Assembly: GCA_903856085.1 (NCBI GenBank)
Contig: CAIOAT010000047.1
Location: 20,634 to 84,633 of the forward strand
Direction: 5' to 3'
Origin: Candidatus Omnitrophota bacterium
GTDB taxonomy: Bacteria > Omnitrophota > Omnitrophia > Omnitrophales > Aquincolibacteriaceae
Length of the DNA: 64,000 bases
The position numbers were made by a program, and so were the translations under genes. How positions within the stretch are numbered: position 1 is the stretch's first letter; the number at the start of each line of letters is the position of its first letter. The notes under the pieces were generated by a model, which saw only the letters and a program-made list of their open reading frames with translations, made no database searches and was not told the origin of the DNA. Below, piece by piece: positions 2,698 to 64,000 of the stretch.

Positions 2698-2702
2698 TTC
2701 TC

Positions 2703-5545: not shown

Positions 5546-5686
5546 ATCGAAATATCCTGAGACGGGCTGACTCTTTTGTTTGCCTTTTCCCCGTATTATT
5601 TATTTACCAAATCTTGAAAGCAGTGGATAATAATCCCTGTTTAAATAGATGCGTTGGAATGCACCCGAGCACTTGAGGAGAAGGAT

Positions 5687-6688: not shown

Positions 6689-6711
6689 TCGGAACATGAG
6701 AAGATCTCACC

Positions 6712-7227
6712 ATGGCTAAGCTTAAGATTCGAACCTATCCCGATCCTGTTCTTAAGAAAAAAACGGCGCCGGTGACCGATTTTGGTCCCGCGATGCAGAA
6801 GCTTTTTGACGACATGATCGCGACCATGCATGTCTCAGACGGCGTGGGCCTCGCCGCACCCCAGGTAGGGATCTCCCAGCAGATTTTTATCGCATGTCCG
6901 ACCATGCGTCACGGCGAAGAACATGTTATGGTGAACGCCGTGATCGAAAAAAAGTCGGGGACTGTTGTTGGATCCGAAGGATGTTTAAGCCTTCCCGGGA
7001 TCTCCGGTGAGATCGTTCGCGCCAAAAGGCTCCGAATGACTTTTTGGAATCGTTTTGGGAAAAAATACACGGTCGAACTCGAAGATTTTTTTGCCCGCGT
7101 TATCCAGCACGAAATGGATCATCTGAGCGGTATTCTCCTGATCGATCATTTCAAGGGTGCGAAACGGGAAAAAATGATCGCTCAGTATGAGTCGGCTAAA
7201 GCAGCGAAGAGTGCCTCCAAACTATGA
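6712..7227 (+). CDS. def: Peptide deformylase
   Basis: The three canonical motifs are present: GVGLAAPQ, EGCLSLPG and HEMDHL. Confidence 0.95.
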   Translation: MAKLKIRTYPDPVLKKKTAPVTDFGPAMQKLFDDMIATMHVSDGVGLAAPQVGISQQIFIACPTMRHGEEHVMVNAVIEKKSGTVVGSEGCLSLPGISGEIVRAKRLRMTFWNRFGKKYTVELEDFFARVIQHEMDHLSGILLIDHFKGAKREKMIAQYESAKAAKSASKL

Positions 7228-45845: not shown

Positions 45846-46709
45846 ATGTCTTACGGCATGAAGTGCTTTCTGTTATGCTCGACACTGACGTTTTGCGCGC
45901 TCACACCAATGGGCTTTGCAACTCCTCGTCTCAATATTGAACCTCTCCCCAAACGGATCACCACCGACCAGAGCATTACCCTGAAGATCCGACTCGAATG
46001 GCCGCAGACCGAAGATCCGTACGAAATCAATTCCTTAGAACCGAAACTAGAAAATCTGGTTCTTGAAAATCAAAACCAATCGCAAGAAACGGGTGCGATT
46101 GTTTCTCAAACCTTGCTCTACGAATTCCGCCCTCTGTCTGCAGGAACGGCCGTCATTTATCCCTTTGAGATCAGTTATCGCAAGAGCGATGCGGAACCAT
46201 GGATACCTATCCTCATCCCGGAACGAACGATCAAAGTAGTCTCAAACTTTCTTTCTAAAATGATCCTAATCTGGCTGGGTATAGCGATAGGCCTTTCGGT
46301 GGGAATATTCGCAGGCTTAAAAGGGTGGAAACTTTTGAAAACCCGAGAGGCTATCAGAAATGCTCCGCCGCCAGATCCGAAACAACGTGTTTACGCGAAG
46401 GCAGAGGAATCCATCACGACTTTCACTTCGCCGGATTCTAAAGAAAAAATGACTCATTGGTCCAATCAATTGCGAACCGTTCTCGTGACCTATTATGATG
46501 TCTCCTCCAAGACCACCACGAGTGCGGAGGTTCTTTCAGCCTTGAAAGCCAAGGGACTTCCGACGGGGGAGTGGAACGAGATTTCCCGACTTTTCGAGCA
46601 ACTGACCGAGATGCAATTTTCGCAACAGGACATCCCGGCATACGATCTCGACCGCCTTCAAAAGAGCCTCTTGCAATATGTGAGAGGCAAGATTATCATT
46701 GGGAATTAA
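45846..46709 (+). CDS. Hypothetical membrane protein: signal peptide, ~130 aa extracytoplasmic domain, one TM, ~130 aa cytoplasmic helical domain. It is a paralog-like partner of the ORF at 48834-49781 and possibly BatD/DUF4381-like.
   Basis: Hydrophobic N-terminus and a central TM (ILIWLGIAIGLSVGIFAGL); the same architecture recurs at 48834. Confidence 0.5.
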   Translation: MSYGMKCFLLCSTLTFCALTPMGFATPRLNIEPLPKRITTDQSITLKIRLEWPQTEDPYEINSLEPKLENLVLENQNQSQETGAIVSQTLLYEFRPLSAGTAVIYPFEISYRKSDAEPWIPILIPERTIKVVSNFLSKMILIWLGIAIGLSVGIFAGLKGWKLLKTREAIRNAPPPDPKQRVYAKAEESITTFTSPDSKEKMTHWSNQLRTVLVTYYDVSSKTTTSAEVLSALKAKGLPTGEWNEISRLFEQLTEMQFSQQDIPAYDLDRLQKSLLQYVRGKIIIGN

Positions 46710-46847: not shown

Positions 46848-47837
46848 ATGGACAACTCGATCCAAGAAGTAAACGCCAAGATTCGTGATGCTAACTCGTC
46901 TCTGAAAGACCTCACACGCGAGATTGGAAAGGTCATCGTCGGGCAGCAATATCTCGTGGACCGGCTTCTTATGGCTCTTTTAGCGGATGGGCATATCTTG
47001 ATCGAGGGCGTTCCGGGGCTTGCCAAAACTCTTTCCGTCAGAACTCTCTCCCAGGCCATTGACGCTCAATTTCAGCGCATCCAGTTCACCCCCGACCTTT
47101 TACCGGCGGACGTGGTTGGAACCTTGGTCTATAACCCCAAGGATGGTCATTTTACGACCAAAAAGGGCCCTATTTTCACAAATATCGTCCTGGCGGATGA
47201 AATCAACCGGGCTCCTTCTAAGGTCCAAAGCGCGCTTCTGGAAGCCATGCAGGAGCGCCAGGTTACGATTGGGAACGAAACCTTCCCCTTACCGGTCCCG
47301 TTCCTCGTCCTCGCCACCCAGAACCCGATCGAGCAGGAGGGGACCTATCCTCTTCCCGAAGCTCAAGTCGACCGTTTTATGCTGAAGCTCGTTGTTAGCT
47401 ATCCGAGTAAAAAAGAAGAAAAAGAGATCCTGGAGCGCATGGCAATTGGCAAAACCGTCCAGATCAAGCCCGTGTTGGATATCGACCGCATCATAGCCTT
47501 GCGCCAACTCATGCATCAAATTTACATCGATGAAAAAGTGAAGGATTATATCCTTGATCTTGTATTCGCAACGCGCAATCCCCAGGATTACAAGCTCGCG
47601 GATCTGAAACCCCTCATTTCGTACGGAGCTTCGCCGCGTGCGAGCATCATGCTGACATTGGCAGCTAAAGCCAACGCCTTTCTCCAGGGCCGCGGTTATG
47701 TGACCCCGGATGACGTCAAGCAGATCGGAACGGATGTTCTCCGGCATCGTGTGCTCGTAACTTACGAAGCTGAGGCCGAAGACATCACGTCCGACGATCT
47801 TGTGAAGAAGATTTTCGATCAAGTCGAAGTCCCGTAA
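46848..47837 (+). CDS. MoxR-family AAA+ ATPase
   Basis: Walker A LIEGVPGLAKT, Walker B VLADEINRA, ~330 aa. The start is at the internal ATG, which has an AAGGAG RBS. Confidence 0.9.
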   Translation: MDNSIQEVNAKIRDANSSLKDLTREIGKVIVGQQYLVDRLLMALLADGHILIEGVPGLAKTLSVRTLSQAIDAQFQRIQFTPDLLPADVVGTLVYNPKDGHFTTKKGPIFTNIVLADEINRAPSKVQSALLEAMQERQVTIGNETFPLPVPFLVLATQNPIEQEGTYPLPEAQVDRFMLKLVVSYPSKKEEKEILERMAIGKTVQIKPVLDIDRIIALRQLMHQIYIDEKVKDYILDLVFATRNPQDYKLADLKPLISYGASPRASIMLTLAAKANAFLQGRGYVTPDDVKQIGTDVLRHRVLVTYEAEAEDITSDDLVKKIFDQVEVP

Positions 47838-47964
47838 TTCTCTGCGAAACAAGATTGAAATTGCGAAGCGAGAAACAATTTTAAATGTTTCGGATTCTTC
47901 AAAACAAATATTTCCATTTCGAATTCGTTGCTGTTTGATCACTTTACTGGAGTTATCATAATCC

Positions 47965-48837
47965 ATGAGCCTCGCCGCGCTCCTAAAGAAGGTCCGGAAG
48001 ATCGAAATTCGCACGACGCGACTGGTCAACGATCTCTTCGGAGGTGAGTATGAATCCGTCTTTAAAGGCCAGGGGATCGAGTTTTCAGACGTCCGGGAAT
48101 ACGTGCCGGGCGATGATATCCGCACCATTGATTGGAACGTCACCGCGCGCTCACAGAATCCCTTCGTTAAAAAGTTCGTCGAGACCCGCGAACTTACAGT
48201 GCTTTTCGCCGTCGATATGTCCGGCTCCCAATATTTCGGATCGACAGATAAGCTCAAGTCAGAGATCGCTGCGGAGATCACGGCCATTCTCGCTTTTTCC
48301 GCCGTTAAGAATAATGACAAGACCGGACTCCTCATCGCTACGGAGGGCGTTGAGAAATTCATCCCTGTCAAAAAGGGGCGCAATCACGCCCTCCGTGTCA
48401 TCCGCGAAATTCTTGGGTACCAACCCAAGAAAAAAAAGACGCGGCTTGCCGGCGCTCTGGAATATCTCTATCGGGTCCAGACAAGGACTTCGGTCATTTT
48501 TCTGATCTCGGACTTCATGGATGACGGCTATGAAAAAGCTTTAAAAATCCTTAGCCAGAAACACGACGTGATTGCCATCTATCTGCACGACCAACTCGAA
48601 CAACAATTCCCGAAGATCGGACTGGTGGAGCTTGCGGACAGGGAAACAGGGAACACCATGCTTGTTGACACGACCTCGTCCCAATTCCAAGACCGGTTTC
48701 GTCAGACAGCCAATGAAAAACAGATCGCACTCTCCAGACTTTTTAAACGTCTTCAGATCGACTGTATCGATATCCCTGCAAATACTTCCTATGTCGAACC
48801 TCTTTTTAAGTTCTTCAAGGGAAGGGAACGTAAATGA
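47965..48837 (+). CDS. DUF58 protein (the VWA-like partner of MoxR)
   Basis: VREYVPGDDIRTIDWNVTAR signature and the typical MoxR-DUF58 pairing. Confidence 0.85.
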   Translation: MSLAALLKKVRKIEIRTTRLVNDLFGGEYESVFKGQGIEFSDVREYVPGDDIRTIDWNVTARSQNPFVKKFVETRELTVLFAVDMSGSQYFGSTDKLKSEIAAEITAILAFSAVKNNDKTGLLIATEGVEKFIPVKKGRNHALRVIREILGYQPKKKKTRLAGALEYLYRVQTRTSVIFLISDFMDDGYEKALKILSQKHDVIAIYLHDQLEQQFPKIGLVELADRETGNTMLVDTTSSQFQDRFRQTANEKQIALSRLFKRLQIDCIDIPANTSYVEPLFKFFKGRERK

Positions 48838-49781
48838 GAAAGTCATTTTTCTTTGCGCTTCTGTTTGTCGCAGCTTTTTGCGTCCCTTGCCTTGCGGCAA
48901 ATACAGACGACATTCGCGTCAAAGCCGAGGTCGATAAAGCATTCCTCACGATCGGTGACCCGGTCACCTACACCGTTACCGTCGAGCATTCTCCGGACAT
49001 CCGAATCCTTTCCGAGATCCCTGCGCCTTCTTCGGATATCCTCGAGATCAAGAAAGTCGAAGACATCCATAAAAAACTAAAGAAAAATATTGTTACAGGC
49101 CGTAAATTCATCCTCACAAGCTATCGGCTTGGCGAATTCGTCCTCGATCCTGTGATCCTCAAATACCAAAAGGATGGACAGCCCGAGAAAAGCATTCCAA
49201 CGAACAAACTCTACCTGACTGTCAAAAGTGTTACGAATGGTGCTCCCCAAGAAGATATCCGCGATGTTAAATCCGTTGTTCCGTACAAACTGCACCTGGG
49301 AAAATTCCTCTGGACACTTCTTGCCCTGTCGCTTCTCATGGCCGGCTACTTCCTCTACCGTGCTCTTCGCAAGAAAAAGAATGTGTTTCAACCCGCGCCT
49401 TCGCCTTTGACAGCTGAAGAGGAGGCTTTTCTGCATCTCGGGGAACTTTTCGAATCCGATCTTCTCAAGCGCGGGCTCATCAAAATGTATTACTTGCGTC
49501 TTTCCGAGATTTTGCGGGTCTATTTTGAAAAACGCTATCAGATCCTTGCGGTAGAATTAACCACCGTCGAAATCCTTCGCGCTCTCCGGCCCCAGCATCT
49601 TGAGACCGGCCTTTATCAGAAGATCCAGTATGTCCTCGACGCCTCAGATCTTGCGAAATTCGCAAAGTGGATCCCCACGGCTCCTGAGATCATGCAGATC
49701 AACAAGAAAGCCGAAGAGATCATCAAAGAATCCGTTCCGGTCCTAGAGCAAGCCCTTGCAGAGGCATCCCATGGTGTTTAG
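48834..49781 (+). CDS. Hypothetical membrane protein with a signal peptide, an extracytoplasmic beta-rich domain, one TM and a cytoplasmic helical domain (DUF4381-like, as found in Bat operons)
   Basis: N-terminal signal (FALLFVAAFCVPCLA), a TM (FLWTLLALSLLMAGYFLY), and its position between DUF58 and BatA. Confidence 0.55.
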   Translation: MRKSFFFALLFVAAFCVPCLAANTDDIRVKAEVDKAFLTIGDPVTYTVTVEHSPDIRILSEIPAPSSDILEIKKVEDIHKKLKKNIVTGRKFILTSYRLGEFVLDPVILKYQKDGQPEKSIPTNKLYLTVKSVTNGAPQEDIRDVKSVVPYKLHLGKFLWTLLALSLLMAGYFLYRALRKKKNVFQPAPSPLTAEEEAFLHLGELFESDLLKRGLIKMYYLRLSEILRVYFEKRYQILAVELTTVEILRALRPQHLETGLYQKIQYVLDASDLAKFAKWIPTAPEIMQINKKAEEIIKESVPVLEQALAEASHGV

Positions 49782-50833: not shown

Positions 50834-52894
50834 ATGCAATTTTTCAGACCTGAACATTTAATTTTTTTATGGTTGGTGCCGACGGTACTGGCCTTCTATG
50901 TCTTTTCGCGAAGGCTATGGCAAAAGCGCATGCATCGGTTGGTTCAGGATGAAACACTCCTTTCCAAATTGATCGAGGGTTACAGGAAAAGCGAGTGGCT
51001 TATCCGTACGATTCTCATGACGCTTGCCGTGCTTTGTCTCGTGCTCGCGCTCGCACGTCCTCAATGGGGCGACGAAAAACGGAGGGCCCAGCGCAAGGGC
51101 GTAGACATCATTTTCATGGTCGACACATCTCTGAGCATGCTTGCAGAGGATATTAAGCCCAACCGCCTCGAAAAAGCCAAGTTTGAGATCGAAACCTTTA
51201 TCCGCAACCTTCGCGGCGACCGTATTGGCATGGTTACTTTTGCAGGTTCGGGATTTCTCCAAACACCGCTGACGCTCGATCATGCAGCCTTTCTCCTGTT
51301 TCTGGATGCCGTTCAAGTGGGATTTCTTCCGGATCCCGGGACATCACTCGTCCAAGCCTTCCAGTTGGCTTTGCGTGCCTTTCCCGAAAAGGAGCTCAAA
51401 TACAAAGCCTTGATCCTCTTTACGGACGGGGAAGACCATGAAGGCGGAATTGAAAAGACTATCGAAGAGGCCAAGCAGGCTAATATCAGGATCTATTGCG
51501 TAGGCCTTGGAACGGCGGAAGGGGAGCCCATCCCCCTCAAGAACGAAAGAGGGGAGCGATCGGGATTCAAGAAGGATCGAAATGGGCAAATGGTGCTCAC
51601 ACGGCTCAACCAGCCGCTTCTCGAACGGCTCGCCAAAGAAACGGGCGGGATCTACCTTCCCGCTTCGCCGTCAGAAAAAGAGGTCGATGTCATCTTAAAA
51701 CATCTTCGTGGGTGGGGAGAGCAGCAATTCGCAGAAAAAATGGTGGTGGAGCGCGAAGACCAATACCAAGGGTTCCTGATCCTCGCCCTAATCTTTCTGG
51801 CTGCCGAAATGCTTATCCGACGAAAAAACAGCAAAAGTCCGGCCTTGATGGCCTGCCTCGCTGTCTTTTTCCTTTTCACGGGATTTCTTGAGACCTCACA
51901 GGGTACGGTCAAAAAAGGTAACGATCACTTTCAAAACAAGCGCTTTCAATCCGCCCTTGATGCCTACCGCAAGGTTCAGGTCAAGAATCCTGACGCTCCG
52001 GAAGTGCTCTATGATCTTGGAACAACGCTCTACAAAGTTGACTCTTTTCAAGAATCGGCCCAGGATCTCGAGACCGCTTCTAAAACCGCCCAGGATCCGC
52101 AGCTGAAAGCCCGCGCGCTCTACAACGCTGGGAACGTCCAGTACAGGCTCGGAAATTTCGAAAAGGCCATTGATTCCTATAAAAAGGCTCTCGCCCTGGA
52201 CCCGAACGACAAGGACGCCAAGTATAATCTCGAATTCCTTCAAAAACAGAAGAACAAGATTGATAAAAAGGACAAAGATAAGAAGAAAGACGATCAGAAA
52301 AAAGACAAACAAAAGAAAGAGCAGCAGAAGAATAAGCAGGACCAAAAAGATCAACAAGATCAAAAAGATCAGCAACAACAGCAGCAACCTAAGCCTCAGG
52401 ATCAGCAGGATCAAAAAGATCAGCAACAACAGCAGCAACCTAAGCCTCAGGATCAGCAGGATCAAAAAGATCAGCAGCAACAGCAGCAACCGAAGCCTCA
52501 GGATCAGCAAGATCAAAAAGATCAACAGCAACAGCAGCAACCGAAGCCTCAGGATCAGCAAGATCAAAAAGATCAGCAACAGCAACAACAGCCTAAGCCT
52601 CAGGATCAGCAAGATCAAAAAGATCAGCAACAGCAACAACAACAGCAGCAACCTAAGCCTCAGGACCAGCAGGATCAACAGAAGGAGCAAGAGGAACAGC
52701 AAAACCCGCCGGAGCAGCAGAAAAGCCCTCAAGATGAGAGCCAAGGGCAATCCAAACGTCCGCTCCAGGGGCAGATGAGCATGGATAATGCCCTCAACCT
52801 ATTGGATGCTCTGAAAGAATCTGAAAAAGAGCTTCAGGACCTCCGTCGTCCACCGGTTAACAAGAATCCGCCGCCGGTGGATAAAGATTGGTAA
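50834..52894 (+). CDS. BatB-like VWA + TPR protein with an internal Gln-rich tandem-repeat region
   Basis: N-terminal TM helices, MIDAS DIIFMVDTSLSM, FTDGEDH, TPR repeats (ALYNAGNVQYRLGNFEKAIDSYKKALALDPND), then a 6 x 17-aa repeat. Confidence 0.8.
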   Translation: MQFFRPEHLIFLWLVPTVLAFYVFSRRLWQKRMHRLVQDETLLSKLIEGYRKSEWLIRTILMTLAVLCLVLALARPQWGDEKRRAQRKGVDIIFMVDTSLSMLAEDIKPNRLEKAKFEIETFIRNLRGDRIGMVTFAGSGFLQTPLTLDHAAFLLFLDAVQVGFLPDPGTSLVQAFQLALRAFPEKELKYKALILFTDGEDHEGGIEKTIEEAKQANIRIYCVGLGTAEGEPIPLKNERGERSGFKKDRNGQMVLTRLNQPLLERLAKETGGIYLPASPSEKEVDVILKHLRGWGEQQFAEKMVVEREDQYQGFLILALIFLAAEMLIRRKNSKSPALMACLAVFFLFTGFLETSQGTVKKGNDHFQNKRFQSALDAYRKVQVKNPDAPEVLYDLGTTLYKVDSFQESAQDLETASKTAQDPQLKARALYNAGNVQYRLGNFEKAIDSYKKALALDPNDKDAKYNLEFLQKQKNKIDKKDKDKKKDDQKKDKQKKEQQKNKQDQKDQQDQKDQQQQQQPKPQDQQDQKDQQQQQQPKPQDQQDQKDQQQQQQPKPQDQQDQKDQQQQQQPKPQDQQDQKDQQQQQQPKPQDQQDQKDQQQQQQQQQPKPQDQQDQQKEQEEQQNPPEQQKSPQDESQGQSKRPLQGQMSMDNALNLLDALKESEKELQDLRRPPVNKNPPPVDKDW
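52340..52690 (+). repeat. Imperfect 51-nt tandem repeat (~6.5 copies) within the BatB CDS encoding (PKPQDQQDQKDQQQQQQ)n
   Basis: Directly visible periodicity, with synonymous differences between copies (cct/ccg, cag/caa). Confidence 0.85.
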
Positions 52895-53021: not shown

Positions 53022-53468
53022 ATGAGCCTTATCGAGCAAATCGAAAAAGATATCATCGCAGCTATGAAAGCTAAGGAACCTGTTAAGGTCTCAACCTTAC
53101 GAATGCTTAAAAGCGCCCTTGGGAACCATCTGATCCAGGTCAAAAAAGACAAGCCAGAAGACGCGGATGTCCTCAGTATTATTGCTAAACAGGCGAAACA
53201 GCGTCGTGAAAGCGTTGAGAGTTTTGAGAAGGCTGGCCGCAAAGACCTTGCTGATAAAGAAAAGGACGAGTTAGCGATCCTGGAAACCTATTTGCCCAAG
53301 CAGTTGACTGACGAAGAGCTAGCGGGGGCAGTCCGAAATGCCATCGCTATATCAGGCGCTAAAAGCCCCGCAGACATAGGAAAACTCATGAAGGTCCTTA
53401 TGCCTTCTATTCAGGGTAAAGCCGATGGCAAACGCGTCCAGGACGCCGTAAAAGCCATCCTAAAGTAG
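53022..53468 (+). CDS. yqeY: GatB/YqeY domain protein
   Basis: 148 aa; MSLIEQIEKDIIAAMKAKE ... LRMLKSAL matches the YqeY family N-terminus; AAAGGAGAG RBS. Confidence 0.8.
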   Translation: MSLIEQIEKDIIAAMKAKEPVKVSTLRMLKSALGNHLIQVKKDKPEDADVLSIIAKQAKQRRESVESFEKAGRKDLADKEKDELAILETYLPKQLTDEELAGAVRNAIAISGAKSPADIGKLMKVLMPSIQGKADGKRVQDAVKAILK

Positions 53469-54242
53469 CCTTCCGAATACCTTCTTGGCAAGGCCAGTTC
53501 TCCCTGGGAACTACTTTACATAAGATACATTATAGGACGTGAATACTTCAGACGAAGCGTTCCTCCTATAGGGTTAAAGCACTGTGCCTGGTCTTGTAAT
53601 TCGAGCAACCCGGAGCAAGTAAATGATATCGTCGCGATCAATCCGAGAAGGTCACCCTCAACAAATTACAAGCCCTGGTCAACTGAAACGGATTAGCGCA
53701 GACACCCGTCAGGGCTTCTCGAGACGAAGCGCATTTTCCCGCACAAATTTAACGCTTTTTCAATAGAGAGGCTTGAAACGGTTCCGGAAGATTGTTCTTA
53801 GGTGACCTCTGCCCCTCCCATTTCGGAGTCAAGGCTATAAATAATATACTCGGGACCTGCCCGGAGACTGCCACTGAACATCCTTGATCCTTTTTGGCCA
53901 TAGACGACCAAAGACCGGTTTTTATCGACAGGACAGATTCGGGAGGATTATTAGAGGAAAAATTGCCGCCCCAAGAGCCATTACCTCGTGCGAACATCCA
54001 CGACAGATTTCATCACATACTCAAAACGGCTGGCCCATAAACCGAAGGGCTTGTTCTTGCACAATTCTCTTATCAACCGTTCAGTTTTCATTTTTATTCG
54101 CCTGTCATTTCTGCGACGCTCAGAACTCAACGCGGATTTGCGCGGAATAAACCAAGGATTTCAAAGAAAGAATAGGAAGTTCTTTGGGTTTAATCAGGGG
54201 CTTTATAACCCCTCGAGGCTTTTAGAAAATCTCGGGTAAAGC

Positions 54243-57200
54243 TTATGCCGCTGTAGCGACGGACTTTTGGGCGGCAACCTCGCCAAGGAGGGCCTTCATG
54301 AATTGGTTGGCAAAGAATGCGGCGACAGCATAATCGTTACCGACTTTGGGATTCTTGATGCCGGCGTGATCGATCACCAGGTCAATTCCGATGGTCGCAA
54401 TGGCATTGGTCGCCGCGGCAAGGGATTGCCGTCCTTCAGGGGTTTCAGCCCACTCCGGAGGATAGACAAAGGTGCCTTTATATCCCTTGCTCTGAACAGC
54501 CTCGCGCACCTGATCCAAGCTTAACGCGTTGCCAAGGAAGATCACGTGCTCCGGACTCACGCCTCGCAGCTTCAACTTTGCAACGATCTCTGGGATCTCA
54601 GCACCGATCTTATCAGGAGCAATGACCCTGACCCCCGGAACATCCTCGAAATTCTTATCTCCTACGACAAACACGTAAGGATTCGTGCGGGCAGCCATAG
54701 CATCAAGGGTCTTCATTTTCTCGACACTGCCGTTCACGATGATCTGCTGGGCAATCTCGACCATTTTGGCGTCGAACGGCTGGAGGGTCTCGGACTTGTT
54801 CCTCGCCATACTCACGAGAGCTTTGATCAGATCGATCTGCGAGCGGATACTTGCCGCGAATTCGGGATCCTCAGTCGCTATCTCCGGGTGATTCGCAAGG
54901 AGCGACCCCATGAACGCCGCGGTATCCTCGTAGGCCAAAAATTCCTGCTCAAGATCACCGAGGCGTTGATTTTCAGGGAGCGCGTGCGAATTCTCATGGA
55001 CCATGCCCCACGCCAAGGTAAATTGCACGCGCCGCTCCAGATTTGCGAGTTCTAGCTTCGAAAGCGTCTCGGACGCCAAGGCTTTGGTATAATCCGCGAG
55101 CTTATCGCCATTCAGAACCACTCCGCCATTCCGGAAATAGCCGACATGCCCCTGGATCAGCTCGCGCTCTTCAGGCGTTGTAGCCATCTTCCAATTCGCG
55201 CCCGCCCAATGATTTCCCTTATAGTTCTTCGCCATATCATAAGCCGCTCTCGCCACCTTATCTGCTGAATTCAACTCCGCTGGGGCAACCTCGGACGCAG
55301 AAACTCTCTTCGCTTCAGATCGCGGAGCTTCGACGGATCTCAATACCTCCGGCTCGTCCCGTAGTTCCGCGCGCGGAGAGTTCATTTTTTCAACAGACTT
55401 TTGCATCACGACGGAGGCCGGGGCGATATAATCGATATACTCCCTGCCATCCTCCCCCTTACGCTCCCCTGCCTTCGAGAAACCAAGCCGCTCGTACAGC
55501 TTGATCGCCTTGGTGTTCTTGGGCTCGACGGAAAGGGCGATCGGGACGCTTGAGAAACCTCTTTCTGAAAGGTTCTTCGCAAGGCCGTAGATCATCGCCG
55601 TCCCGAGTCCTGAGCCTTGGGCGGCTTGGGCCACACCCACGTTATAAATATAAGCCATGTCCCCCTGAATCGGAGCCGCCAGGAGATACCCTTGCACCTT
55701 TCCGTTCACTTCATAAACCATGCTAAATCCAGAGGCCGCATCTGCCTGCAAGATTTTTGCGAAGGATTCGGCAGAAAAATCTGTCAGTTCGTTCTGTTTC
55801 CCGGTCTCATCACTGACAGCAATGGCTTGTCTGATCCGATCACCTGAGGCAGAATTGAGAGCCCTAAAACTTCCCGGGAGCCCCGTCTCTTTCATATTGA
55901 GCGTTTCATTTTTCACGAGTTCACCGCGGAATTTTGCTAAAAATTGAGCGCTGAACTTTTGAGCGTCGGATCCGGCGGCCAGCATGGGATCGGCCCCCAT
56001 TCTTCCCAGGATATCCATCGCGAACATAGCCAACTGCTCCTTGACCATCTTCGCCTCGTCCGCTGATAAAGAAAATCCCGCATAGCTCGTATCCGTCAGG
56101 TTGCGAGCAACCTTCTCCAGATACCCCGGCAAAAACTGAGTCGCGATCATTGAAATGTGGCTCGCGATCAGATGTTTTCTCTCAGCCTCCTGGGCCTGCA
56201 GATCCGTCATCTTTTGCATGGCAATCCACTCAGGAGAAGCAAAGATCTCGCGCAGGAATGAGTGCAATTCCGCACCGATCAGCGACGCTTTCTTAAACAT
56301 AAAATCCTGTTTATCCCGGAAGCCGTAGATCCTTCCGTCGTAATCGAAAGCATGAAGATTATCCAGATCATGACCTTCTTCGTGGATCGCCGTATGCTTT
56401 TCGTAATTATTCAGCATGAATGTGTAGCGCAGATACTGTTGAGGTTTGCCGAACGGTTCGCTTGCTCCAGATTCTCCATCTTCCATAAAGAAACCGGCCG
56501 GTAAATGCTGGGGATCAAGAATAATATTGCCGCCAACACCATTAGCTTTGGGCTGGAAGGAAGCGTGCATCAGGGTTTCTTCATTCAGCCCGTATCTTGA
56601 GATCAGATGATCCAGGGAATCATCCAGGTTCTCCAGAATCCATTTCACCGCTTCCCGTTTAACGTTGGCGTCTGTGGAGTTCAACTTTTGGAGCATTTGA
56701 TCTTTCTCACGGTGCTCAAGAATGCTGATCATGCCTCGCAGTCCGCGTAACTTTTGAGCCGCCGCATCCGATCCAAATACGGACGTCAGAGCGACTTTTA
56801 GAGAAAGCATCAGCGTGCTTTCGTAATCCGCCCAATTTCCGGCCGCGGCAAGCGCATCGAGGTCGTTTTTCGCAGCTTCGGACAGATAGGGATCGAGCAA
56901 CGGACGGAGAAGGCGCCAAGCGCTCGGACGGCCTGTTCCGGAAATCGCAGGGTTATTTTCCAGGGTCTCGATGACAAGCGCTAGAAGGGCATTCGCGTTC
57001 CGAGGATCAAGGTTTTTGATCATTTCCGGATCGAGCAATTCGCCCTCCGGCGTAAGGAACCGGATCGAAAAACGATCGGACAAGTATTTACGGCGGGACT
57101 GATCGCGCATAACTTCATCCCGCGAAACGGGAGCAAGGGTTCTTCGTATGCCGGGCTGACCCATCCTGAAATAAACGGCAGTCATTTCAGAGATGCAGTC

Positions 57201-60200
57201 GGACGTACCGCAAAAAACAAGTTCGTCCCAAGAGCGGATGTTCCGACCGTTCAAAGCCAGGCCGTTGCGCACCGCATCCGCATAATTTCCTTTAAGACTC
57301 GTCCGGACTTCGAAAGCGTATCTTTCAAACTCAGCACGGCTCGGATTCGTCAAAACGGTAAGCGACTGATCGGCGTGTCCTGCGGGCGATCTGAGCCGCA
57401 TCCGCTCCAAATCCATGGCGGCATAGAGGCGGTTCGCGGCATCGCGGCGAAGCAATGCCTGCGCCCAGTCAACGCGGCCTTCCGCGATAAGGTTATTGAT
57501 CAGCTCGGCTGTTTGTTGCGAGGTAAAATTCCTGGGAATAAAATAACCTCCCAGACCGTCCATGACAACCCGCATCAGGTCGTCTACGGACCTGAATTGA
57601 TGGAAAGCGATCAGGTCATCCAGGCTCGTCGCGTTGCGCCGTATCCGGGCTACGATCCCCGAAACAGTTATGTTGTGTGCCTGAAGAGCTGCAGCAAATT
57701 CCGTGCCTGGCTGATCCTGTTCCTTAAGGATATCCTCAAGCCGGAAGAGAGAATCAAGAGCTTGCTGAACTCTTTCTCTCATCGCGCGCGCAGCCTTCTC
57801 GCGCCAGCCCACGACGTAGCCGCTCGGGTTCTTCGGGTCAGTGTAGAGCCGAAGTTTTTCAACGATCTCTCGGCGATCGTAAATATGGGCCTCGTCCGGA
57901 TCGTAAACACGGCCGTGTTGTTGGGCATAGAAGGTCAGGAGCTCTTCTAAGAGATTCTGGTCTGTATCGCGGAAGTCAGATCCCTCGAGACCTCTGGGAT
58001 CATTAAAGTGGATCGTTTCATGCAACCATGACGGTTGATAGTACTGTTCGGACAGCAAGATCACAGGGAGTTTTTCAAAAATCGTCCCTTTGAAAGTGCC
58101 TACCGATTGGGTATTACTGCCAAACCATCCAGGGTTGGTAACAGGCATCCAGCCGGCGGCTCTAAGTTGTTTTTCAATCTTATAGGGCATCACAACCGAC
58201 AGCGTCGGATGGTCCGAAATATTCTCCTGGATCATATAGGCCCTGCGGTAGTACACCTCTTGCTCGCGGACGCTAAGGGACTCCCACATTTTCCCGTCCC
58301 TTTCAGCAAGAGATTTCGCGAAAGAAATAAATTCAGCGTCTCCCTTACGGAAAGCGAGTTCAGGAATAGGAACATCCAAGTTTTCCGATGGACTGGCCGT
58401 TACGACCTTGATGCCGATCAGCATTTCGGGCGTGATCGCGGAACCGGCCGGCATTTTAACGTTAAGAATTTTTGCCAGTTCTTCACGCGCTTTCAGATTC
58501 TCCGGAGAATTTTCGGGAGAATTCAATCCGTTCACGATCTGATCATTAATTTGATCGATAATACCTAGCCGCGCATTGAGCACATCCTCTGAAAGCTCAA
58601 GCGGCGGCTCGCCCACAAGCGTCACGGCACGATCCTTATTCCGGGCGAAATGCAGGATATCCGAGCGCAGGAAGTCCTGTCCTTTGCGACGATCGCGATT
58701 CTCCCGGTTGATCGACAGCAACAGGTCGGAAAGACCGGGCGCAATAGCATCCAGACGGCCTTGCATTTCCTCACGAAGTTTGCTGTCCATAATCGTTCGC
58801 GCTTTCTCGATCTCTGTGTAAGCCCTCCCGAATTTCACAACATCCTCAGTGGAGACACCGGCGATTTGCAGGGGCTCTACAGCCTTCTGGAGTTTCCCTT
58901 GAATCTCCTGCGCGGCAGCCGAATTTTTATCTTCGATGGCGCTGAGCTGTTCAAAAAGCGTCCGGATTTCCAGAAGCTGGAAAATCGTAAGATTGGTTTG
59001 TTTTCCGATCTGCTCGAGTTCCTTTTTCGCTTCGTTGCTTTCCTGCTCGACTTGTCTGACCACACTGTTGAGCTCGATCTCCGGCACCAGTTTTTCTCCG
59101 GCTTTAATGCGCTGCATGAGTTCAGCCTTAGGCGCATTCTGGATCGCCACGTAGGCAAGCATCAGCGCGGTCCAGGAATTGACCGGGACCTTTTGTTCGC
59201 GAATAGCCTTCATGATATCGCTCAGCACCATCTGGCGGCGAAACTCTGTCGAAAAGAACCCACCCACCACACGACCGAAAGCGCGGGAAATCATCATTAA
59301 GTTGCCAAATTCCCCTTTCTCGGTCCGGAACTTGTTGTCCCTCTTGATCAGCCATGTAGAAAGTGCGACACCCATTGCAAGGCCTGACGCCCACCCACTC
59401 ATGAAAACAAGGGCCGCCGGCAACAGAGGTGCCGCCAGGACCGAGACGAGCAAGGTAGGACCAAGAGTGACCGCAACCGCCAAGGTGGCGGCAACCAAAC
59501 CAAGTCCGATGCTGCCCGACGTCAGGAGCCCGTAATTACCGATCATGGTCGCTATCTTCCACGACCATTTCTGTCCCATCGTAAGCTCCGCTGCCAGGGC
59601 ATAGCGGCCCTGGTTGGACTGGAGATTCGCGATGACAGGTCTAAGATTCTCGAGAGCCGCGATTTCAGCTTTAAGTTTGGCATCATCGGCAGCTTCATCC
59701 ACGGGTTGGCCTTCTGCCTTCCTAGCCGCCTGGTCCTTCAGGGCTTTTTCGATAAGGGATTGGCGCATACTCGCCAAGACGTCGTCCACGCCAGTCTTGG
59801 ATCCCAGGCGCGCATCGACAAAATCGCGCTTCTGCTTGATGAGCTGATCGAGTTCTGTGAGGCTAAGCTTTAACACCTTTGGATTTTTCGCGGCATATTC
59901 CTGAAGCTCGTCGGCATTGCGATAAGCCGACTGATGATCCCAATGGATCACGTGAGCCAGGTTCAGGAACGCGAACATCGTCTTCCAGATGGCCGCTTCA
60001 TAGGCGGCCTCATCGCCAAACGCTTGCTTGTCCCCCACAAGCTTTATCGCCACTTTGCGCACATCGCCCAGGGAATCATAACGGGCTTTGCCAAACTGGA
60101 AAGCATCCATCAGCGAGACTCCAAGCACCGTTCCGAGAGTCACGGCAACAGCCGATCCCAGGAGCAGCGGTAGCAGCGCGACACCAAAGATAAGACCCGC

Positions 60201-63200
60201 CCAAGGCACGGCTACAGCGGCAACAACCGCTGCGGGAATGGCTGCTCTTGCCCATTTGTTCTCTGTCAGGAACCGCGATGTCTTCGTCAGCATTTGAGAC
60301 GCGCTGAATTTGAATTTTTTCCACCCGCGCTGGAACCGGCTTGCACCTTCGGACTCTGTTTTCTGGTAGTCAAGCCAGAACTTTCTCTGCGTCTGATAAT
60401 CCTTCTGATCACGTTCGAATTGACTGATCATTCCGTCATAGATCCGGTGCATTTCACGAAGGATCTTGGGATCAGAAACCTTGCCCATGGCTAATTGAAC
60501 CAATGCCACGGAGAAGGCCTGTTCGCGGTTCCGATCAAGGGACGCGGCATTGCGGGCGGTAAGCGCCGTGCGGAAGTCGGCCACGGACAACGCTCTGGCG
60601 TCAAAGACCGTTTCCTCCTGGAAATTCCCGAACTTGGCGAGGTAATCAAGCGCCGTGGAATCGATCTCAGCGGCGTTGTAAAAACCAAGATCAATCATCT
60701 GCCGAACGAAGAACAGGGCTTCTTTTGAAGCATCGCCCGCTTCACCTTGAGGGACTAATCCGAGCAATTTCTGCAGCATGCTGTTGAGTTGCCCCCCTTG
60801 CGGTTCCCCGAGACGCTTGGCAAGCGCTGACACGAGCGCGAGGATCTTCTCGCCCTGCGAATTGAGGTTACCTTGAGCGTCGAATCCTCCGTTGGCTTCA
60901 ATGAGCTCCCGATGGGCGGCTGCTAATGCTTCCGCTGCCGCGGTTTCCGCCGTTACGTCAAGCGTCTGGGCCGCCCTTTCCATTCCCTCCCGGGTCTGGA
61001 TCGCTGCCTGCATTCCTGCAGAGGCACGAGGCGCAGTCTGGGTCGCCTTCATATCATGGGGACCAACCACCTGACCCGCAACTTCCACAAACCGGACAAT
61101 GTCGCCCTGTGAACCGACGCCTTCGTCATGTTTGTGCTGACGTTCAAATTCCTGGGCCTTCGCAAGAAGCTCCTGATAGGTTTTTTGATCCTGTATCCGA
61201 GCCTCAAGTTCCTTGAGGCGGTTACCTTGCTCTTCGCTAGGTGTCGCAAGCCCCTTCAGTTGCCCGAGCTCGGTCATTTCCGCGGCTGTCAGCTGATCGA
61301 ACCACACGGGATCGATATCTTTTAAGCCCTGGAGGCGACGGAACTCGGTTGTTTCTTCGGCCGTCATTTTCGCACCGGCAAGTTTCAGCACGATCTCAGC
61401 ATTCGCGGTGAGGGCCCGTTCCGCCACCAGCAGTTTGTTTTCCGGGGAGACAACGGACGAGTCACTCACTTCCGTCCACAGCTCACGAGCCTCATCCAGC
61501 ATCCGGTTGAGCCTCATTTGAAGCACATCCACGGCCTCCGACTCTTTCTTCGGCCGTTCCCAGCTATCGTTTTTACTGAGAGAATTCTGGATCTCCATCA
61601 GTTTTTGAGCGAAAAATCCCTGCTCCTCTGGGGTCTTGGAATTCTGGATAAGCTGACGGAAGAAATTTTCGGCTTCGGCTTCCAACGCTTCCATCATGCT
61701 GTTAAAGGTGGCCCGCTCGCCCTCAGGATCGTTTTCCGCATTCATCCAGGTCCAAAAAGCCTGGATCCGCTCGGCATCGGTCTTGGCCTCTTCGATCTTC
61801 CCTCCGAATCTTTTTCCGACCGCCACAATGTAAGGCGAAGGCACTTTAAAATCCTGGAGAGAAAAGACCTGATCCAGCTTGGTGCCAAAATAGATCTTCA
61901 TCCTGTCGTTCAGGTTCTGGTTCTGGGCCGCCAATTTTTCATTGGAGAAGCGCTCATGATTGCCGAGGTAATTGAACTGCCAGACGTAGGGGGCTTCACG
62001 CGAAGGCACATCGCCTTTTCTATACACGGACTCGCCGGTAGCCGTATTGATCTCCCAGTAACCCACGGCTTGCCCCTTCACGAGGTCACGGACGACCGCG
62101 ATCAGAGCTCCGTCGCCCATTCCGACAAACTGCCCTTTATTATCCTTCAGGAATTCTGTCGCGGTTCCCGCTTCAGCCTTATGAATAATGCCTTTTTCGT
62201 CCGTATAAGTGAGCGCGTCATGACTATAGGCATAATGAGCAAACTCGTCCAGTTTGGCTGCGACACCGCGGAGACGTCCCAACAACTGGTCCAGCATTTC
62301 CATGTCCACGCCTTCACCGACAAGCATTGCCGGCACCGTCGTGTTATCCATCATCATGCTGAACCCAACCGTTCTTTGCGTAAACAGAACCCGGCGCTTC
62401 GTACTGAGCTCCGTTCCGGCCAACTGCTGTCCTAACCTCTCCGCGAACCATTGGTTTTTAAGTTCTTTATACTCCGTCGCGTCTCCTTGTTCACTTATGA
62501 GCACCGGCACTTCATAGCCCGACCCATCCGCCTTCAGGCGGTAAACCTTGAAGCCGCCTTCTTCGTCGATAACCACCTCTTCAATCTTGTGAGCCAGAGC
62601 CTCCCGCAAAACCTCCCCGATAGCATTGGTCACATGGTCTTGTGTCACCGCACTAAAAATAGCAAGATTCTTTGGTTGACCGTCCGCCTCCATGGATTTC
62701 ATATATTTTTCGAAGACATTTCCGATAGCCTTCCGGATGTCGCCCGCCCCCGAGATCTGATAACCATGCAACCGGGCTTCGGCATTAAGCGCCATATACC
62801 GCTGTGCCGCGCGAACCGTAGCGGAAACGACCCCGAAAATAGCCCGGAACGACTGCCCGAATTTTTGCACCGTCGCGGACGTAAAAATGGCATTACCGCC
62901 AAGCCGGCGGATACTGTCGACTATGATGCTCAGTTGGGTTTGAAGTCCAAACCCCGATACTTCCACATTCCGCTGCGGGTTCGCCTCAGCGCCCTCCAGA
63001 GGCTTGAAGATCATTTCAAGCGCAACGGAATAGGATGCGGAATGGAAAGTCATCCTGGGTTCGGCCTTGTTCTGGGAAAAGGGTGCTACTTTATAGATCC
63101 ATTTCTTATTCCCCTGTTTATCCTGCGTCTCGTACCAAACCACCGTAACGCCTTGCCCGCCCTCAGCCCGCTGGCTCTGCATCAAAGCCATCGCCCACTG

Positions 63201-64000
63201 ATTCGCTGCATCACGGACATCCCGATGCGCAATATCTTGAGACTCGTTGAACTTCTGCCATGTCTCTTCGGGGGTTTTACCCTTGAATTTTCCACCGCCC
63301 ACCTCTTCGGCGATGAAGGCCTGGAAAGCGTCGGTGAACATAAAACGCTTGTTCGGAAATTCCTTAACCACTTCACGCATTTTGAGGTTCAAAACATTGG
63401 CGATCGCTTTAGCGGTCAGAACCCTCTTCTCCAGCTCCGAGTATTCTTTGGTTAAATTAACAAGCTCATCGAGTCTGGACTTCTGTTCTTTGGACAGGCT
63501 GGGCAATGCCTCGAGAGTTGCTTTTTCGGTCTCATGCTGCGTTTTTTGTTCGGTCAGCCATTTGAAGCGATCCACTTCGCTGGGAGTCTTGGCGCCCGGA
63601 CGGTCCTTGAGGACCAGCTTACTTAATTCTTTCCAAGCCTGGGTAGCGCTCATCGAAAAAGCTTTGTCTGTCTTCGGATCCGTCCACTCGATCGGAATGC
63701 CCTCTTTATCAAGCCATTTCAGGAGCAAAGTCCGTATCAGCGCGCCGTTTCTGGCTTCCGTGACAGTCGCTCCCCGGGTCCCGCCACCTTCGCGGAAATG
63801 CTTATTAAAGAGCAACTGCGATTCATCAAAAAGCGCGAGTGAGCGACCGAAAATTTCCTGGAAAGCCGTCTGGACCTCGGGAGATTTGATCGTCCCTAAC
63901 GTAAGGAAACCCAGTGAGCTGAAGGTGATATCGACGATCTTAGCGTTCGTGATCCGGCTCAGTATATCCGTTACGACAGCCGCATCCCCGCTTTGCAGTT
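54243..64000 (-). CDS. Giant multi-domain membrane protein, 5-prime partial (at least 3250 codons; the ORF is still open at the window end). It has a long N-terminal region of unknown function, 2+3 predicted TM helices, a C-terminal region containing a GNAT acetyltransferase fold and three HExxH motifs, and a C-terminal alpha/beta domain.
   Basis: An uninterrupted 9.75 kb reading frame on the minus strand. The track start at 63815 is a TTG, and hand translation shows no in-frame stop from 63816 to 64000. Motif positions are given in the findings. Confidence 0.85.
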   Translation of the reverse strand, partial: LQSGDAAVVTDILSRITNAKIVDITFSSLGFLTLGTIKSPEVQTAFQEIFGRSLALFDESQLLFNKHFREGGGTRGATVTEARNGALIRTLLLKWLDKEGIPIEWTDPKTDKAFSMSATQAWKELSKLVLKDRPGAKTPSEVDRFKWLTEQKTQHETEKATLEALPSLSKEQKSRLDELVNLTKEYSELEKRVLTAKAIANVLNLKMREVVKEFPNKRFMFTDAFQAFIAEEVGGGKFKGKTPEETWQKFNESQDIAHRDVRDAANQWAMALMQSQRAEGGQGVTVVWYETQDKQGNKKWIYKVAPFSQNKAEPRMTFHSASYSVALEMIFKPLEGAEANPQRNVEVSGFGLQTQLSIIVDSIRRLGGNAIFTSATVQKFGQSFRAIFGVVSATVRAAQRYMALNAEARLHGYQISGAGDIRKAIGNVFEKYMKSMEADGQPKNLAIFSAVTQDHVTNAIGEVLREALAHKIEEVVIDEEGGFKVYRLKADGSGYEVPVLISEQGDATEYKELKNQWFAERLGQQLAGTELSTKRRVLFTQRTVGFSMMMDNTTVPAMLVGEGVDMEMLDQLLGRLRGVAAKLDEFAHYAYSHDALTYTDEKGIIHKAEAGTATEFLKDNKGQFVGMGDGALIAVVRDLVKGQAVGYWEINTATGESVYRKGDVPSREAPYVWQFNYLGNHERFSNEKLAAQNQNLNDRMKIYFGTKLDQVFSLQDFKVPSPYIVAVGKRFGGKIEEAKTDAERIQAFWTWMNAENDPEGERATFNSMMEALEAEAENFFRQLIQNSKTPEEQGFFAQKLMEIQNSLSKNDSWERPKKESEAVDVLQMRLNRMLDEARELWTEVSDSSVVSPENKLLVAERALTANAEIVLKLAGAKMTAEETTEFRRLQGLKDIDPVWFDQLTAAEMTELGQLKGLATPSEEQGNRLKELEARIQDQKTYQELLAKAQEFERQHKHDEGVGSQGDIVRFVEVAGQVVGPHDMKATQTAPRASAGMQAAIQTREGMERAAQTLDVTAETAAAEALAAAHRELIEANGGFDAQGNLNSQGEKILALVSALAKRLGEPQGGQLNSMLQKLLGLVPQGEAGDASKEALFFVRQMIDLGFYNAAEIDSTALDYLAKFGNFQEETVFDARALSVADFRTALTARNAASLDRNREQAFSVALVQLAMGKVSDPKILREMHRIYDGMISQFERDQKDYQTQRKFWLDYQKTESEGASRFQRGWKKFKFSASQMLTKTSRFLTENKWARAAIPAAVVAAVAVPWAGLIFGVALLPLLLGSAVAVTLGTVLGVSLMDAFQFGKARYDSLGDVRKVAIKLVGDKQAFGDEAAYEAAIWKTMFAFLNLAHVIHWDHQSAYRNADELQEYAAKNPKVLKLSLTELDQLIKQKRDFVDARLGSKTGVDDVLASMRQSLIEKALKDQAARKAEGQPVDEAADDAKLKAEIAALENLRPVIANLQSNQGRYALAAELTMGQKWSWKIATMIGNYGLLTSGSIGLGLVAATLAVAVTLGPTLLVSVLAAPLLPAALVFMSGWASGLAMGVALSTWLIKRDNKFRTEKGEFGNLMMISRAFGRVVGGFFSTEFRRQMVLSDIMKAIREQKVPVNSWTALMLAYVAIQNAPKAELMQRIKAGEKLVPEIELNSVVRQVEQESNEAKKELEQIGKQTNLTIFQLLEIRTLFEQLSAIEDKNSAAAQEIQGKLQKAVEPLQIAGVSTEDVVKFGRAYTEIEKARTIMDSKLREEMQGRLDAIAPGLSDLLLSINRENRDRRKGQDFLRSDILHFARNKDRAVTLVGEPPLELSEDVLNARLGIIDQINDQIVNGLNSPENSPENLKAREELAKILNVKMPAGSAITPEMLIGIKVVTASPSENLDVPIPELAFRKGDAEFISFAKSLAERDGKMWESLSVREQEVYYRRAYMIQENISDHPTLSVVMPYKIEKQLRAAGWMPVTNPGWFGSNTQSVGTFKGTIFEKLPVILLSEQYYQPSWLHETIHFNDPRGLEGSDFRDTDQNLLEELLTFYAQQHGRVYDPDEAHIYDRREIVEKLRLYTDPKNPSGYVVGWREKAARAMRERVQQALDSLFRLEDILKEQDQPGTEFAAALQAHNITVSGIVARIRRNATSLDDLIAFHQFRSVDDLMRVVMDGLGGYFIPRNFTSQQTAELINNLIAEGRVDWAQALLRRDAANRLYAAMDLERMRLRSPAGHADQSLTVLTNPSRAEFERYAFEVRTSLKGNYADAVRNGLALNGRNIRSWDELVFCGTSDCISEMTAVYFRMGQPGIRRTLAPVSRDEVMRDQSRRKYLSDRFSIRFLTPEGELLDPEMIKNLDPRNANALLALVIETLENNPAISGTGRPSAWRLLRPLLDPYLSEAAKNDLDALAAAGNWADYESTLMLSLKVALTSVFGSDAAAQKLRGLRGMISILEHREKDQMLQKLNSTDANVKREAVKWILENLDDSLDHLISRYGLNEETLMHASFQPKANGVGGNIILDPQHLPAGFFMEDGESGASEPFGKPQQYLRYTFMLNNYEKHTAIHEEGHDLDNLHAFDYDGRIYGFRDKQDFMFKKASLIGAELHSFLREIFASPEWIAMQKMTDLQAQEAERKHLIASHISMIATQFLPGYLEKVARNLTDTSYAGFSLSADEAKMVKEQLAMFAMDILGRMGADPMLAAGSDAQKFSAQFLAKFRGELVKNETLNMKETGLPGSFRALNSASGDRIRQAIAVSDETGKQNELTDFSAESFAKILQADAASGFSMVYEVNGKVQGYLLAAPIQGDMAYIYNVGVAQAAQGSGLGTAMIYGLAKNLSERGFSSVPIALSVEPKNTKAIKLYERLGFSKAGERKGEDGREYIDYIAPASVVMQKSVEKMNSPRAELRDEPEVLRSVEAPRSEAKRVSASEVAPAELNSADKVARAAYDMAKNYKGNHWAGANWKMATTPEERELIQGHVGYFRNGGVVLNGDKLADYTKALASETLSKLELANLERRVQFTLAWGMVHENSHALPENQRLGDLEQEFLAYEDTAAFMGSLLANHPEIATEDPEFAASIRSQIDLIKALVSMARNKSETLQPFDAKMVEIAQQIIVNGSVEKMKTLDAMAARTNPYVFVVGDKNFEDVPGVRVIAPDKIGAEIPEIVAKLKLRGVSPEHVIFLGNALSLDQVREAVQSKGYKGTFVYPPEWAETPEGRQSLAAATNAIATIGIDLVIDHAGIKNPKVGNDYAVAAFFANQFMKALLGEVAAQKSVATAA

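Follow-up and report, generated by a model that had tools for sequence, protein, structure and literature searches.

A minus-strand open reading frame (ORF) that ends a 64,000-nucleotide stretch of DNA from a Candidatus Omnitrophota bacterium (assembly GCA_903856085.1, contig CAIOAT010000047.1, positions 20,634 to 84,633; the whole stretch is referred to as the window) is the 3'-terminal part of a giant gene of at least 145,968 bp (at least 146 kb) and at least 48,655 codons, which was 5'-truncated in every assembly. The ORF in the window is the last ~7% or less of this gene, and at least ~45,000 more codons lie upstream. The gene very probably belongs to the class of Omnitrophota giant membrane proteins, which is recognised, functionally opaque, and linked to attachment and predation. 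The giant class itself has already been described; what this gene adds are three HExxH domain families without annotation (modules A, B, and C) and a C-terminal end that is conserved.

Extent of the giant gene

Translation of the minus strand between 63998 and 54246 gave 3,251 stop-free codons, including 61 codons between the TTG listed as the start and the window edge. From the base composition, ~145 stops were expected over 3,251 codons, and the probability of no stop was ~1e-64. GC contents at the three codon positions (GC1/GC2/GC3) were 0.60/0.39/0.61, and this periodicity was kept in all thirds of the fragment. The listed TTG is an internal codon and not the true start: the 3,190-aa call begins there because the ORF listing picks the first start codon after a stop, none being present inside the window.

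An exact-sequence look-up with the neighbouring YqeY located the same locus on 21 contigs from metagenome assemblies of JGI (one) and ENA (several). In six of these records, the minus-strand gene adjoining YqeY was called at 47,762, 31,210, 46,558, 46,718, 46,685, and 48,655 aa. Arithmetic on the contig coordinates revealed that the giant gene call ended exactly at the contig end in all five records with DNA, and, therefore, the true gene length is at least 48,655 aa. Over the 9,226 nt compared, which reach 10 kb from YqeY (window position 63468), five independent assemblies matched the window with 100% identity. This agreement makes an assembly artefact improbable for the visible part, an argument that does not extend to the stretch in which every contig breaks. 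The contigs broke at 46.5-48.7 thousand aa from the stop in five of the six records, and this shared break point suggests an unresolved repeat region upstream. The N-most tile of the fragment had no match in the genome or metagenome contig collections.

The original prediction, made from the window sequence, had described the ORF as uninterrupted and 5'-truncated, and this agreed with the stop-free frame to the window edge, which starts with the peptide quoted there. A frameshift or chimera had been named as the finding that would speak against it, and there was no sign of either, with five independent assemblies identical over the shared 9.2 kb. The predicted size (>3250 aa) was correct in that the protein is longer than listed, but not in scale, since the piece makes up ~7% or less, at the C-terminus, of a protein of at least 48,655 aa. 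The listed "3,190-aa protein" thus accounts for no more than 7% of the giant gene (at least 146 kb), a caution that windowed or MAG (metagenome-assembled genome)-based annotation badly misjudges such loci.

The C-terminal cassette

Three HExxH motifs were found in the fragment, at aa 1993, 2539, and 3001 (Table 1). With a His content of 1.4%, only 0.05 were expected, and the probability of three or more was ~2e-5. Module A was common to the homologs P0008, P0009, P0012, P0014, and P0120. Its invariant residues were S..HE..H, an EE pair ~21 residues downstream, and F..AQ, together with EK..Y and a distal DLL; in the module A alignment (A2), columns H114, E115, H118, E139, and E140 were invariant and HExxH was present in six of six sequences. 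This signature appears gluzincin-like, and the spacing of the EE pair suggests that it may provide the third ligand. Module B, the best conserved of the unannotated domains, had the signature W..NLDDS.D.L ... LDP ... S.PFG..Q.Y.R.TF ... HE..H...N....DYDG.I, and its alignment (A3) contained 38 invariant columns, including H, E, and H of the motif. In module C, HExxH was followed by D..QE.LAY..T..M, and the conserved D..QE.LAY stretch may likewise supply a ligand. BLAST detected neither internal repeats nor paralogous relations between the three HExxH regions, and hhalign of A against C gave a probability of 2%, though HExxH and the downstream Glu were aligned. The zincin/gluzincin metallohydrolases (Wss1/WLM, SprT/Spartan, M32 carboxypeptidase core, and YbeY-type) are the named class with which these modules were compared. 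From their motifs, we infer that modules A and C may be gluzincin-like zinc hydrolases; such a function is plausible for these two, undecided for B, and putative in all three cases.

An AlphaFold2 (AF2) model of module B, constructed with the small family alignment, had a pLDDT (predicted local distance difference test) of 69.5 and a pTM (predicted template modelling score) of 0.60, and consisted largely of helices, a small sheet preceding the motif helix. The model of module C together with the tail had an overall pLDDT of 52, with 60-89 in the first ~170 residues and <50 in the tail.

A GNAT N-acetyltransferase domain was the sole domain recognised by Pfam (tiles, E ≤ 5), NCBIfam, PDB sequences, PHROGs, and PADLOC, a sub-threshold match to JukA aside. 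It matched Acetyltransf_1 (PF00583) with E = 4e-14 and 53.2 bits (Pfam cutoff, 20.7 bits), its best PDB sequence matches were RimI (5isv) and PAT (5dwm), and the QGSGLG sequence fits the Q/RxxGxG/A acetyl-CoA-binding motif. In spite of this likeness to GNATs of the RimI/YpeA/phosphinothricin-acetyltransferase type in Pfam score, PDB matches, and motif, the domain was far below every NCBIfam equivalog cutoff and, unlike RimI-type GNATs, is embedded between two HExxH modules in a protein of at least 48 thousand aa. These low equivalog scores point to no particular substrate. Assignment as RimI (ribosomal protein S18-alanine N-acetyltransferase) was rejected, the score with the equivalog TIGR01575 being 43.7 bits against a cutoff of 86.4 bits.

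The last ~1,400 aa formed a cassette in the order of module A, module B, GNAT, module C, and terminal domain. An exhaustive HMMER search of 1.84 billion representatives, with aa 1900-3099 as the query, returned 278 matches, among which ~11 were multi-module relatives and the rest matched by GNAT alone. A word-indexed search of 5.8 billion proteins, using the full fragment, aa 1-700, and the family alignment (A1), scored 8,000 candidates each with none significant; this search missed even sequences inside the query alignment, and its negatives say little on absence. Four homologs whose frames were checked (P0010, 599 aa; P0013; P0009; and P0008) were all open to the contig edges, while the 6,046-aa P0012 had a run of N upstream and its completeness is doubtful. 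The original prediction had proposed a search for homologs beside yqeY and Bat genes, and, in addition to the ~11 relatives sharing the cassette, P0010 (contig L086) was found in the same YqeY/BatB synteny. In that relative, the convergent YqeY and BatB were 77 and 86% identical to those of the window, whereas the giant tail was only 32% identical; therefore, the giant gene diverges far faster than its neighbours.

In P0008 (aa ~6700-6950) and P0012 (aa ~5330-5610), a weak M42/M20-like segment was located in the place of GNAT between modules B and C. Both segments matched the same part of PF05343 (E ~0.015, below the cutoff), and their PDB matches were Peptidase T and ureidoglycolate hydrolase (E ~0.7-1). 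There was nothing between modules B and C in the homolog on L093. The position between B and C suggests an exchangeable enzyme slot.

The extreme C-terminus (window 54246-54320) ended, as in the window protein, with an amphipathic helix and [AS]A-COOH in P0007-P0010, P0012-P0015, P0120, P0068, and the L093 ORF, the exception among true homologs being P0011, which is apparently frame-shifted or cut. The endings observed were ATAA, ARAA, AQSA, ASAA, EASA, GKSA, RASA, LTSA, MAAA, and WQAA. Among ~140 other listed hits, mostly GNAT-only, an [AS]A ending was found in only two. This tail may resemble a degron (ssrA/ClpX type) or serve as a sorting or secretion signal at the terminus.

Upstream of the cassette, aa 1-1249 matched nothing in Pfam, NCBIfam, or PDB and resembled none of the family homologs; no relative was detectable for aa 1-1860, and nothing upstream of aa 1861 matched any homolog. 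Four to five hydrophobic helices, judged by hydropathy only, were grouped in two clusters, and the sub-threshold JukA match of PADLOC (E = 0.004) lay over the first of these. Both flanks of the first hairpin are predicted to be cytoplasmic. Because of the K/R-rich flanks and the need of GNAT for acetyl-CoA, the last ~1,700 aa are most likely located on the cytoplasmic face and tethered to the membrane. An N-terminal sequence of at least 1200 aa with no recognisable motif, two hydrophobic clusters, membrane anchoring, and the combination of a GNAT fold with three HExxH motifs had all been predicted, and each of them was confirmed.

In P0008, SecA_DEAD, SecA_PP_bind, P-loop_SecA, and Helicase_C were found ~3,100-3,700 aa from the C-terminus, and P0009 and P0012 had Walker-A and DEVH motifs 3,330-3,450 aa from the C-terminus; taken together, the SecA_DEAD or Walker-A/DEVH motors of the homologs lay at a distance of 3,330-3,680 aa. 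If the architecture is colinear, we infer by analogy that a SecA/DEAD-like motor may be located just outside the window edge. On the P0008 contig (L088, 22645-32332; JGI 3300010352), another very large gene, with at least 7,968 aa, directly follows on the same strand and runs off the locus.

Table 1. Features of the 3' part of the giant gene and of its junction with YqeY (window positions; aa are numbered within the 3,251-codon fragment).
Feature	Position	Strand	Remarks
3'-terminal 9.75 kb of giant gene	54243..64000	-	3,251 codons and stop at 54243-54245; frame open at window edge
ORF as listed	54243..63815	-	3,190 aa; TTG start at 63813-63815
N-terminal part of fragment	60252..63998	-	aa 1-1249
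Hydrophobic cluster 1	60099..60251	-	aa 1250-1300; two-helix hairpin, K/R-rich flanks on both sides
Hydrophobic cluster 2	59346..59543	-	aa 1486-1551; two to three helices, then K/R-rich flank (5/15 residues)
Module A	57519..58361	-	aa ~1880-2160; HETIH at aa 1993-1997 (nt 58008-58022); unannotated, conserved
Module B	55869..56981	-	aa ~2340-2710; HEEGH at aa 2539
GNAT N-acetyltransferase, RimI/YpeA-like	55395..55835	-	aa ~2722-2868; acetyl-CoA motif QGSGLG at aa 2794
Module C	54789..55301	-	aa ~2900-3070; HExxH at aa 3001
Terminal alpha/beta domain	54246..54788	-	aa ~3071-3251; ends with amphipathic helix and ...SVATAA-COOH; pLDDT <50
YqeY gene	53022..53468	+	convergent with giant gene; look-up anchor; synteny with BatB kept in relative L086
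Convergent intergenic gap	53469..54242	.	774 nt, between YqeY stop and giant gene stop

Class membership, alternatives, and possible role

Among GTDB species representatives, the nearest relative of the window AlaS was that of a MAG, 85% identical, the next three were Candidatus Omnitrophota MAGs (57, 51, and 48%), and AlaS of all other phyla had at most 46% identity; by this marker, the host is an Omnitrophota bacterium. Giant proteins known from this phylum include one of 39,678 aa in Velamenicoccus archaeovorus (Kizina et al. 2022), the products of 46 genes of >90 kb, the largest with 85,804 aa and "Archaeovorin" and "Dockerin-type" giants among them (West-Roberts et al. 2023, bioRxiv 10.1101/2023.11.21.568195), and proteins of up to 147,155 aa, of which 97 have at least 50 thousand aa (Nielsen & Lui 2026, bioRxiv 10.64898/2026.06.07.730766). 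These giants have transmembrane (TM) anchors close to the C-terminus, with intracellular regions after them, divergent SecA_DEAD (preprotein-binding) motors in most members, and very long branches; GNAT domains are common in them, and Omnitrophota genomes carry genes nearly all on one strand per replichore.

The giant gene of the window shares with this class the Omnitrophota host and the GNAT domain. Further points in common are a divergent SecA_DEAD motor in homologs, a sequence that diverges very fast, breaks within the gene in short-read assemblies, and an arrangement of genes almost all on one strand. By annotated size (at least 30,000 aa, or >90 kb), the calls of 46,558-48,655 aa in five records and of 31,210 aa in the sixth are all above the bound for Omnitrophota giants. 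The source data overlap as well: West-Roberts et al. used the lake metagenomes of Buck et al. 2021, and one of the contigs found here is named BUCK21-1. On the other hand, neither paper mentions HExxH or zincin modules or a conserved C-terminal tail in its text, "zincin" is absent from the 2026 paper, and the 3' side of the window gene carries housekeeping genes and a MoxR-Bat operon with no PilZ, type II secretion system (T2SS), pilus, or glycoside-hydrolase genes. The original prediction of a mostly unannotatable giant of the Omnitrophota type was borne out, including the guess at the taxon, by the AlaS relatives; its view that a giant combining acetyltransferase and peptidase-like modules would be "an unusual member" of the class was not supported.

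West-Roberts et al. 2023 describe Dockerin-type giants as left incomplete by their repeats and as having C-terminal TM and intracellular regions, GNAT domains, and numerous dockerin/TSP3 repeats. The gene described here resembles this subclass in the C-terminal TM anchor followed by an intracellular region, GNAT, and an assembly broken inside the gene; no dockerin/EF-hand or thrombospondin type-3 repeats were found in the window piece by Pfam and NCBIfam scans, which covered the last 3,251 aa only. There is a chance, somewhat short of even, that the giant gene is the published CAILPI010000004_73, a Dockerin-type giant that West-Roberts et al. 2023 show in their Figs 5B and 6. The index 73 fits the ~73 genes (at 1.02 kb/gene) before the giant gene, which begins 74.9 kb into the JGI contig Ga0114951_10000020. 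The Finnish lakes of Buck et al. 2021 are among the sources of that paper, the tie of the accession to them being a guess; the accession is named in West-Roberts et al. 2023 alone.

Several alternatives to a giant gene of this class were considered. A stand-alone mosaic membrane enzyme of ~3,200-3,300 aa starting at or near the listed TTG is in accordance with the listed 3,190-aa ORF, and the 6,046-aa homolog P0012 might be 5'-complete; such an enzyme is extremely improbable, since the frame remains open for 61 codons past the TTG to the window edge, the same gene was called at 31-48.7 thousand aa in six records and runs off the contig, and the N-run just upstream of P0012 makes its completeness doubtful. 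It is also unlikely, if less so, that the long frame does not correspond to one polypeptide, because of internal starts or cleavage into many products, or that it results from the collapse of upstream repeats. All contigs break inside the gene, five of six at a similar distance from the stop, such genes are often affected by assembly errors and possibly by proteolytic processing (West-Roberts et al. 2023), and the cassette itself holds protease-like motifs. These points are countered by the stop-free coding periodicity over the whole visible part and the identical sequence obtained with independent assemblers and samples, whereas post-translational processing is compatible with a single giant gene and no rival to it.

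A secreted RTX/MARTX/RHS-type adhesin or toxin, exported C-terminus first by a type I system through the conserved tail signal, would account for the very large size and the conserved extreme C-terminus, in which an amphipathic helix is followed by small residues ending in [AS]A. This tail recalls type I secretion signals that are not cleaved off, for example that at the end of E. coli HlyA. The window piece differs from these giants in that no RTX (nonapeptide), RHS/YD, MARTX, or adhesin repeat families were found by Pfam and NCBIfam at E ≤ 1-5 and no internal repeats were present; four to five TM helices, in hairpins, lie upstream of the tail, and GNAT, which requires cytoplasmic acetyl-CoA, is located 400 aa from the end. 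A known toxin or adhesin family had been raised in the prediction itself as a contrary outcome, and no RTX/RHS/MARTX domains appeared in the scans. Although C39-peptidase-like domains have been reported on some giants (West-Roberts et al. 2023), this type of protein is thus very unlikely. A recently acquired foreign or mobile island, or an origin from phage or defence systems, has a slightly better but still small probability. The GC content of the fragment was 0.534 against 0.508 for the pooled plus-strand genes (per-gene mean 0.504, sd 0.023), i.e., 2.6 points higher, in line with the prediction of a slightly higher GC; relative synonymous codon usage (RSCU) correlated with that of the neighbours at r = 0.80 against 0.94 in the half-versus-half control; and GC skew at four-fold sites, read on the own coding strand, was +0.05 against -0.13 in the plus-strand genes. 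The gene is also on the opposite strand, and the junction holds toxin-antitoxin (TA) and Abi genes in the relative L086. However, part of the codon difference is explained by the Ala-rich, Cys-poor composition of the fragment (Cys 0.1%, against 1.1% in 1-54242; Ala, Asn, and Trp enriched), the arrangement of BatB-YqeY convergent with the giant tail is kept in the relative with flanking proteins 77-86% identical, PHROGs and PADLOC matched only GNAT apart from the sub-threshold JukA, and no integrase or transposase was found at the junction within the window.

Some results weigh against the giant membrane protein with putative zinc hydrolase modules, which we prefer. The length of at least 48,655 aa was derived from gene tables and arithmetic, with only the last 9.75 kb read directly; the giant gene is known here from DNA; the host was placed by a single marker (AlaS); and the topology was obtained by a hand-made positive-inside count of K/R. 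Canonical HExxH was found in six of eight sequences in module B, with HExxxH in the other two, and in seven of nine in module C, with Gln for the first His in the other two. Because of the HExxxH spacing and Gln replacement in some homologs, catalysis is not universally conserved. Profiles of modules A, B, and C had no match to PDB sequences, no curated peptidase family of Pfam or NCBIfam was matched at E ≤ 5 in the tiles or in 11 family members, Foldseek gave no match, and the module B model resembled only generic helical bundles with no assignable fold. No SecA-like or Walker-A/DEAD motor was present within the 3,251 aa of the window. Furthermore, the window contained no PilZ gene downstream of the giant gene, none of the T2SS and pilus genes reported near giant genes, and no glycoside-hydrolase genes in the 54 kb at the 3' end; the neighbourhood with T2SS/type IV pilus upstream and PilZ plus solute-binding or glycoside-hydrolase genes downstream is a frequent, non-defining feature of giant genes, and the upstream side lies beyond every contig.

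For the giant membrane protein, a possible arrangement would be as follows. In the visible part, ~1,250 aa of lineage-specific sequence would precede two membrane-inserted clusters of helical hairpins and a cytoplasmic region of ~1,700 aa, in which the HExxH modules would act as metallohydrolases (zinc hydrolases). Together with the acetyltransferase, they might form a membrane-tethered cytoplasmic unit that processes or modifies proteins or peptides, possibly the giant itself, while the upstream ~45,000 aa or more would carry exported or adhesive parts and the SecA/DEAD-like motor would lie just beyond the window edge. This specific mechanism is tentative and, in our estimation, doubtful. A bolder proposal, no likelier than this, is that the last ~1,400 aa are an undescribed giant-specific tail cassette, with three new HExxH families, an exchangeable slot, and a conserved-end domain, acting as a maturation unit that cuts and N-acetylates the giant polyprotein or proteins handled by the SecA motor, the tail being a degron or sorting signal for the turnover or placement of the entire molecule. 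Cleavage of giants into smaller polypeptides has been raised as an open possibility (West-Roberts et al. 2023), and a processing unit, if true, would bear on the question in the literature of whether giants act as single polypeptides or cut pieces. The cassette also offers a handle: no other part shows detectable conservation among these giants, which otherwise do not align, and its domains are small and expressible.

Gene neighbourhood

The greedy non-overlapping ORF set of the window contained 47 ORFs on the plus strand and two on the minus strand. One of the latter (47289-48383) was rejected as a real gene, since it shadows MoxR and DUF58, both supported by Pfam; the giant gene was, as predicted, the sole minus-strand gene. 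No clear sign of a replichore switch was seen at the strand change: the skew of the plus strand was negative on both sides (-0.13 and -0.05), with no clear flip. The genes of the window were of housekeeping type, including PriA, GAPDH, PGK, RecG, SMC, AlaS, HisD, TrpE, DnaK, MoxR-DUF58-BatA-BatB, and YqeY.

Downstream of the giant gene, a 774-nt gap is followed by the convergent YqeY, the MoxR-DUF58-BatA-BatB operon, and DnaK. This gap gave no match to Rfam and contained no convincing terminator, and a small ORF in it had no Pfam match. In the syntenic L086, the same gap (2053-4156) held a PhdYeFM/ParE toxin-antitoxin pair, an AbiEii-like nucleotidyltransferase, and DUF5674. The YqeY/giant-gene junction looks like an insertion hotspot.

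In the BUCK21-1 assembly (L002, 7790-9873), the BatB-like VWA-TPR gene (686 aa elsewhere; window 50834-52894) was uncalled and small minus-strand ORFs were called instead. This may be an inconsistency of gene calling between pipelines, the sequences having been compared only over the giant-gene region and being identical there. Two plus-strand ORFs without a Pfam match, 45846-46709 (287 aa) and 48834-49781 (315 aa), lie in or beside the aerotolerance-type operon MoxR-DUF58-BatA-BatB; the 315-aa ORF, located between DUF58 and BatA, was called in all assemblies.

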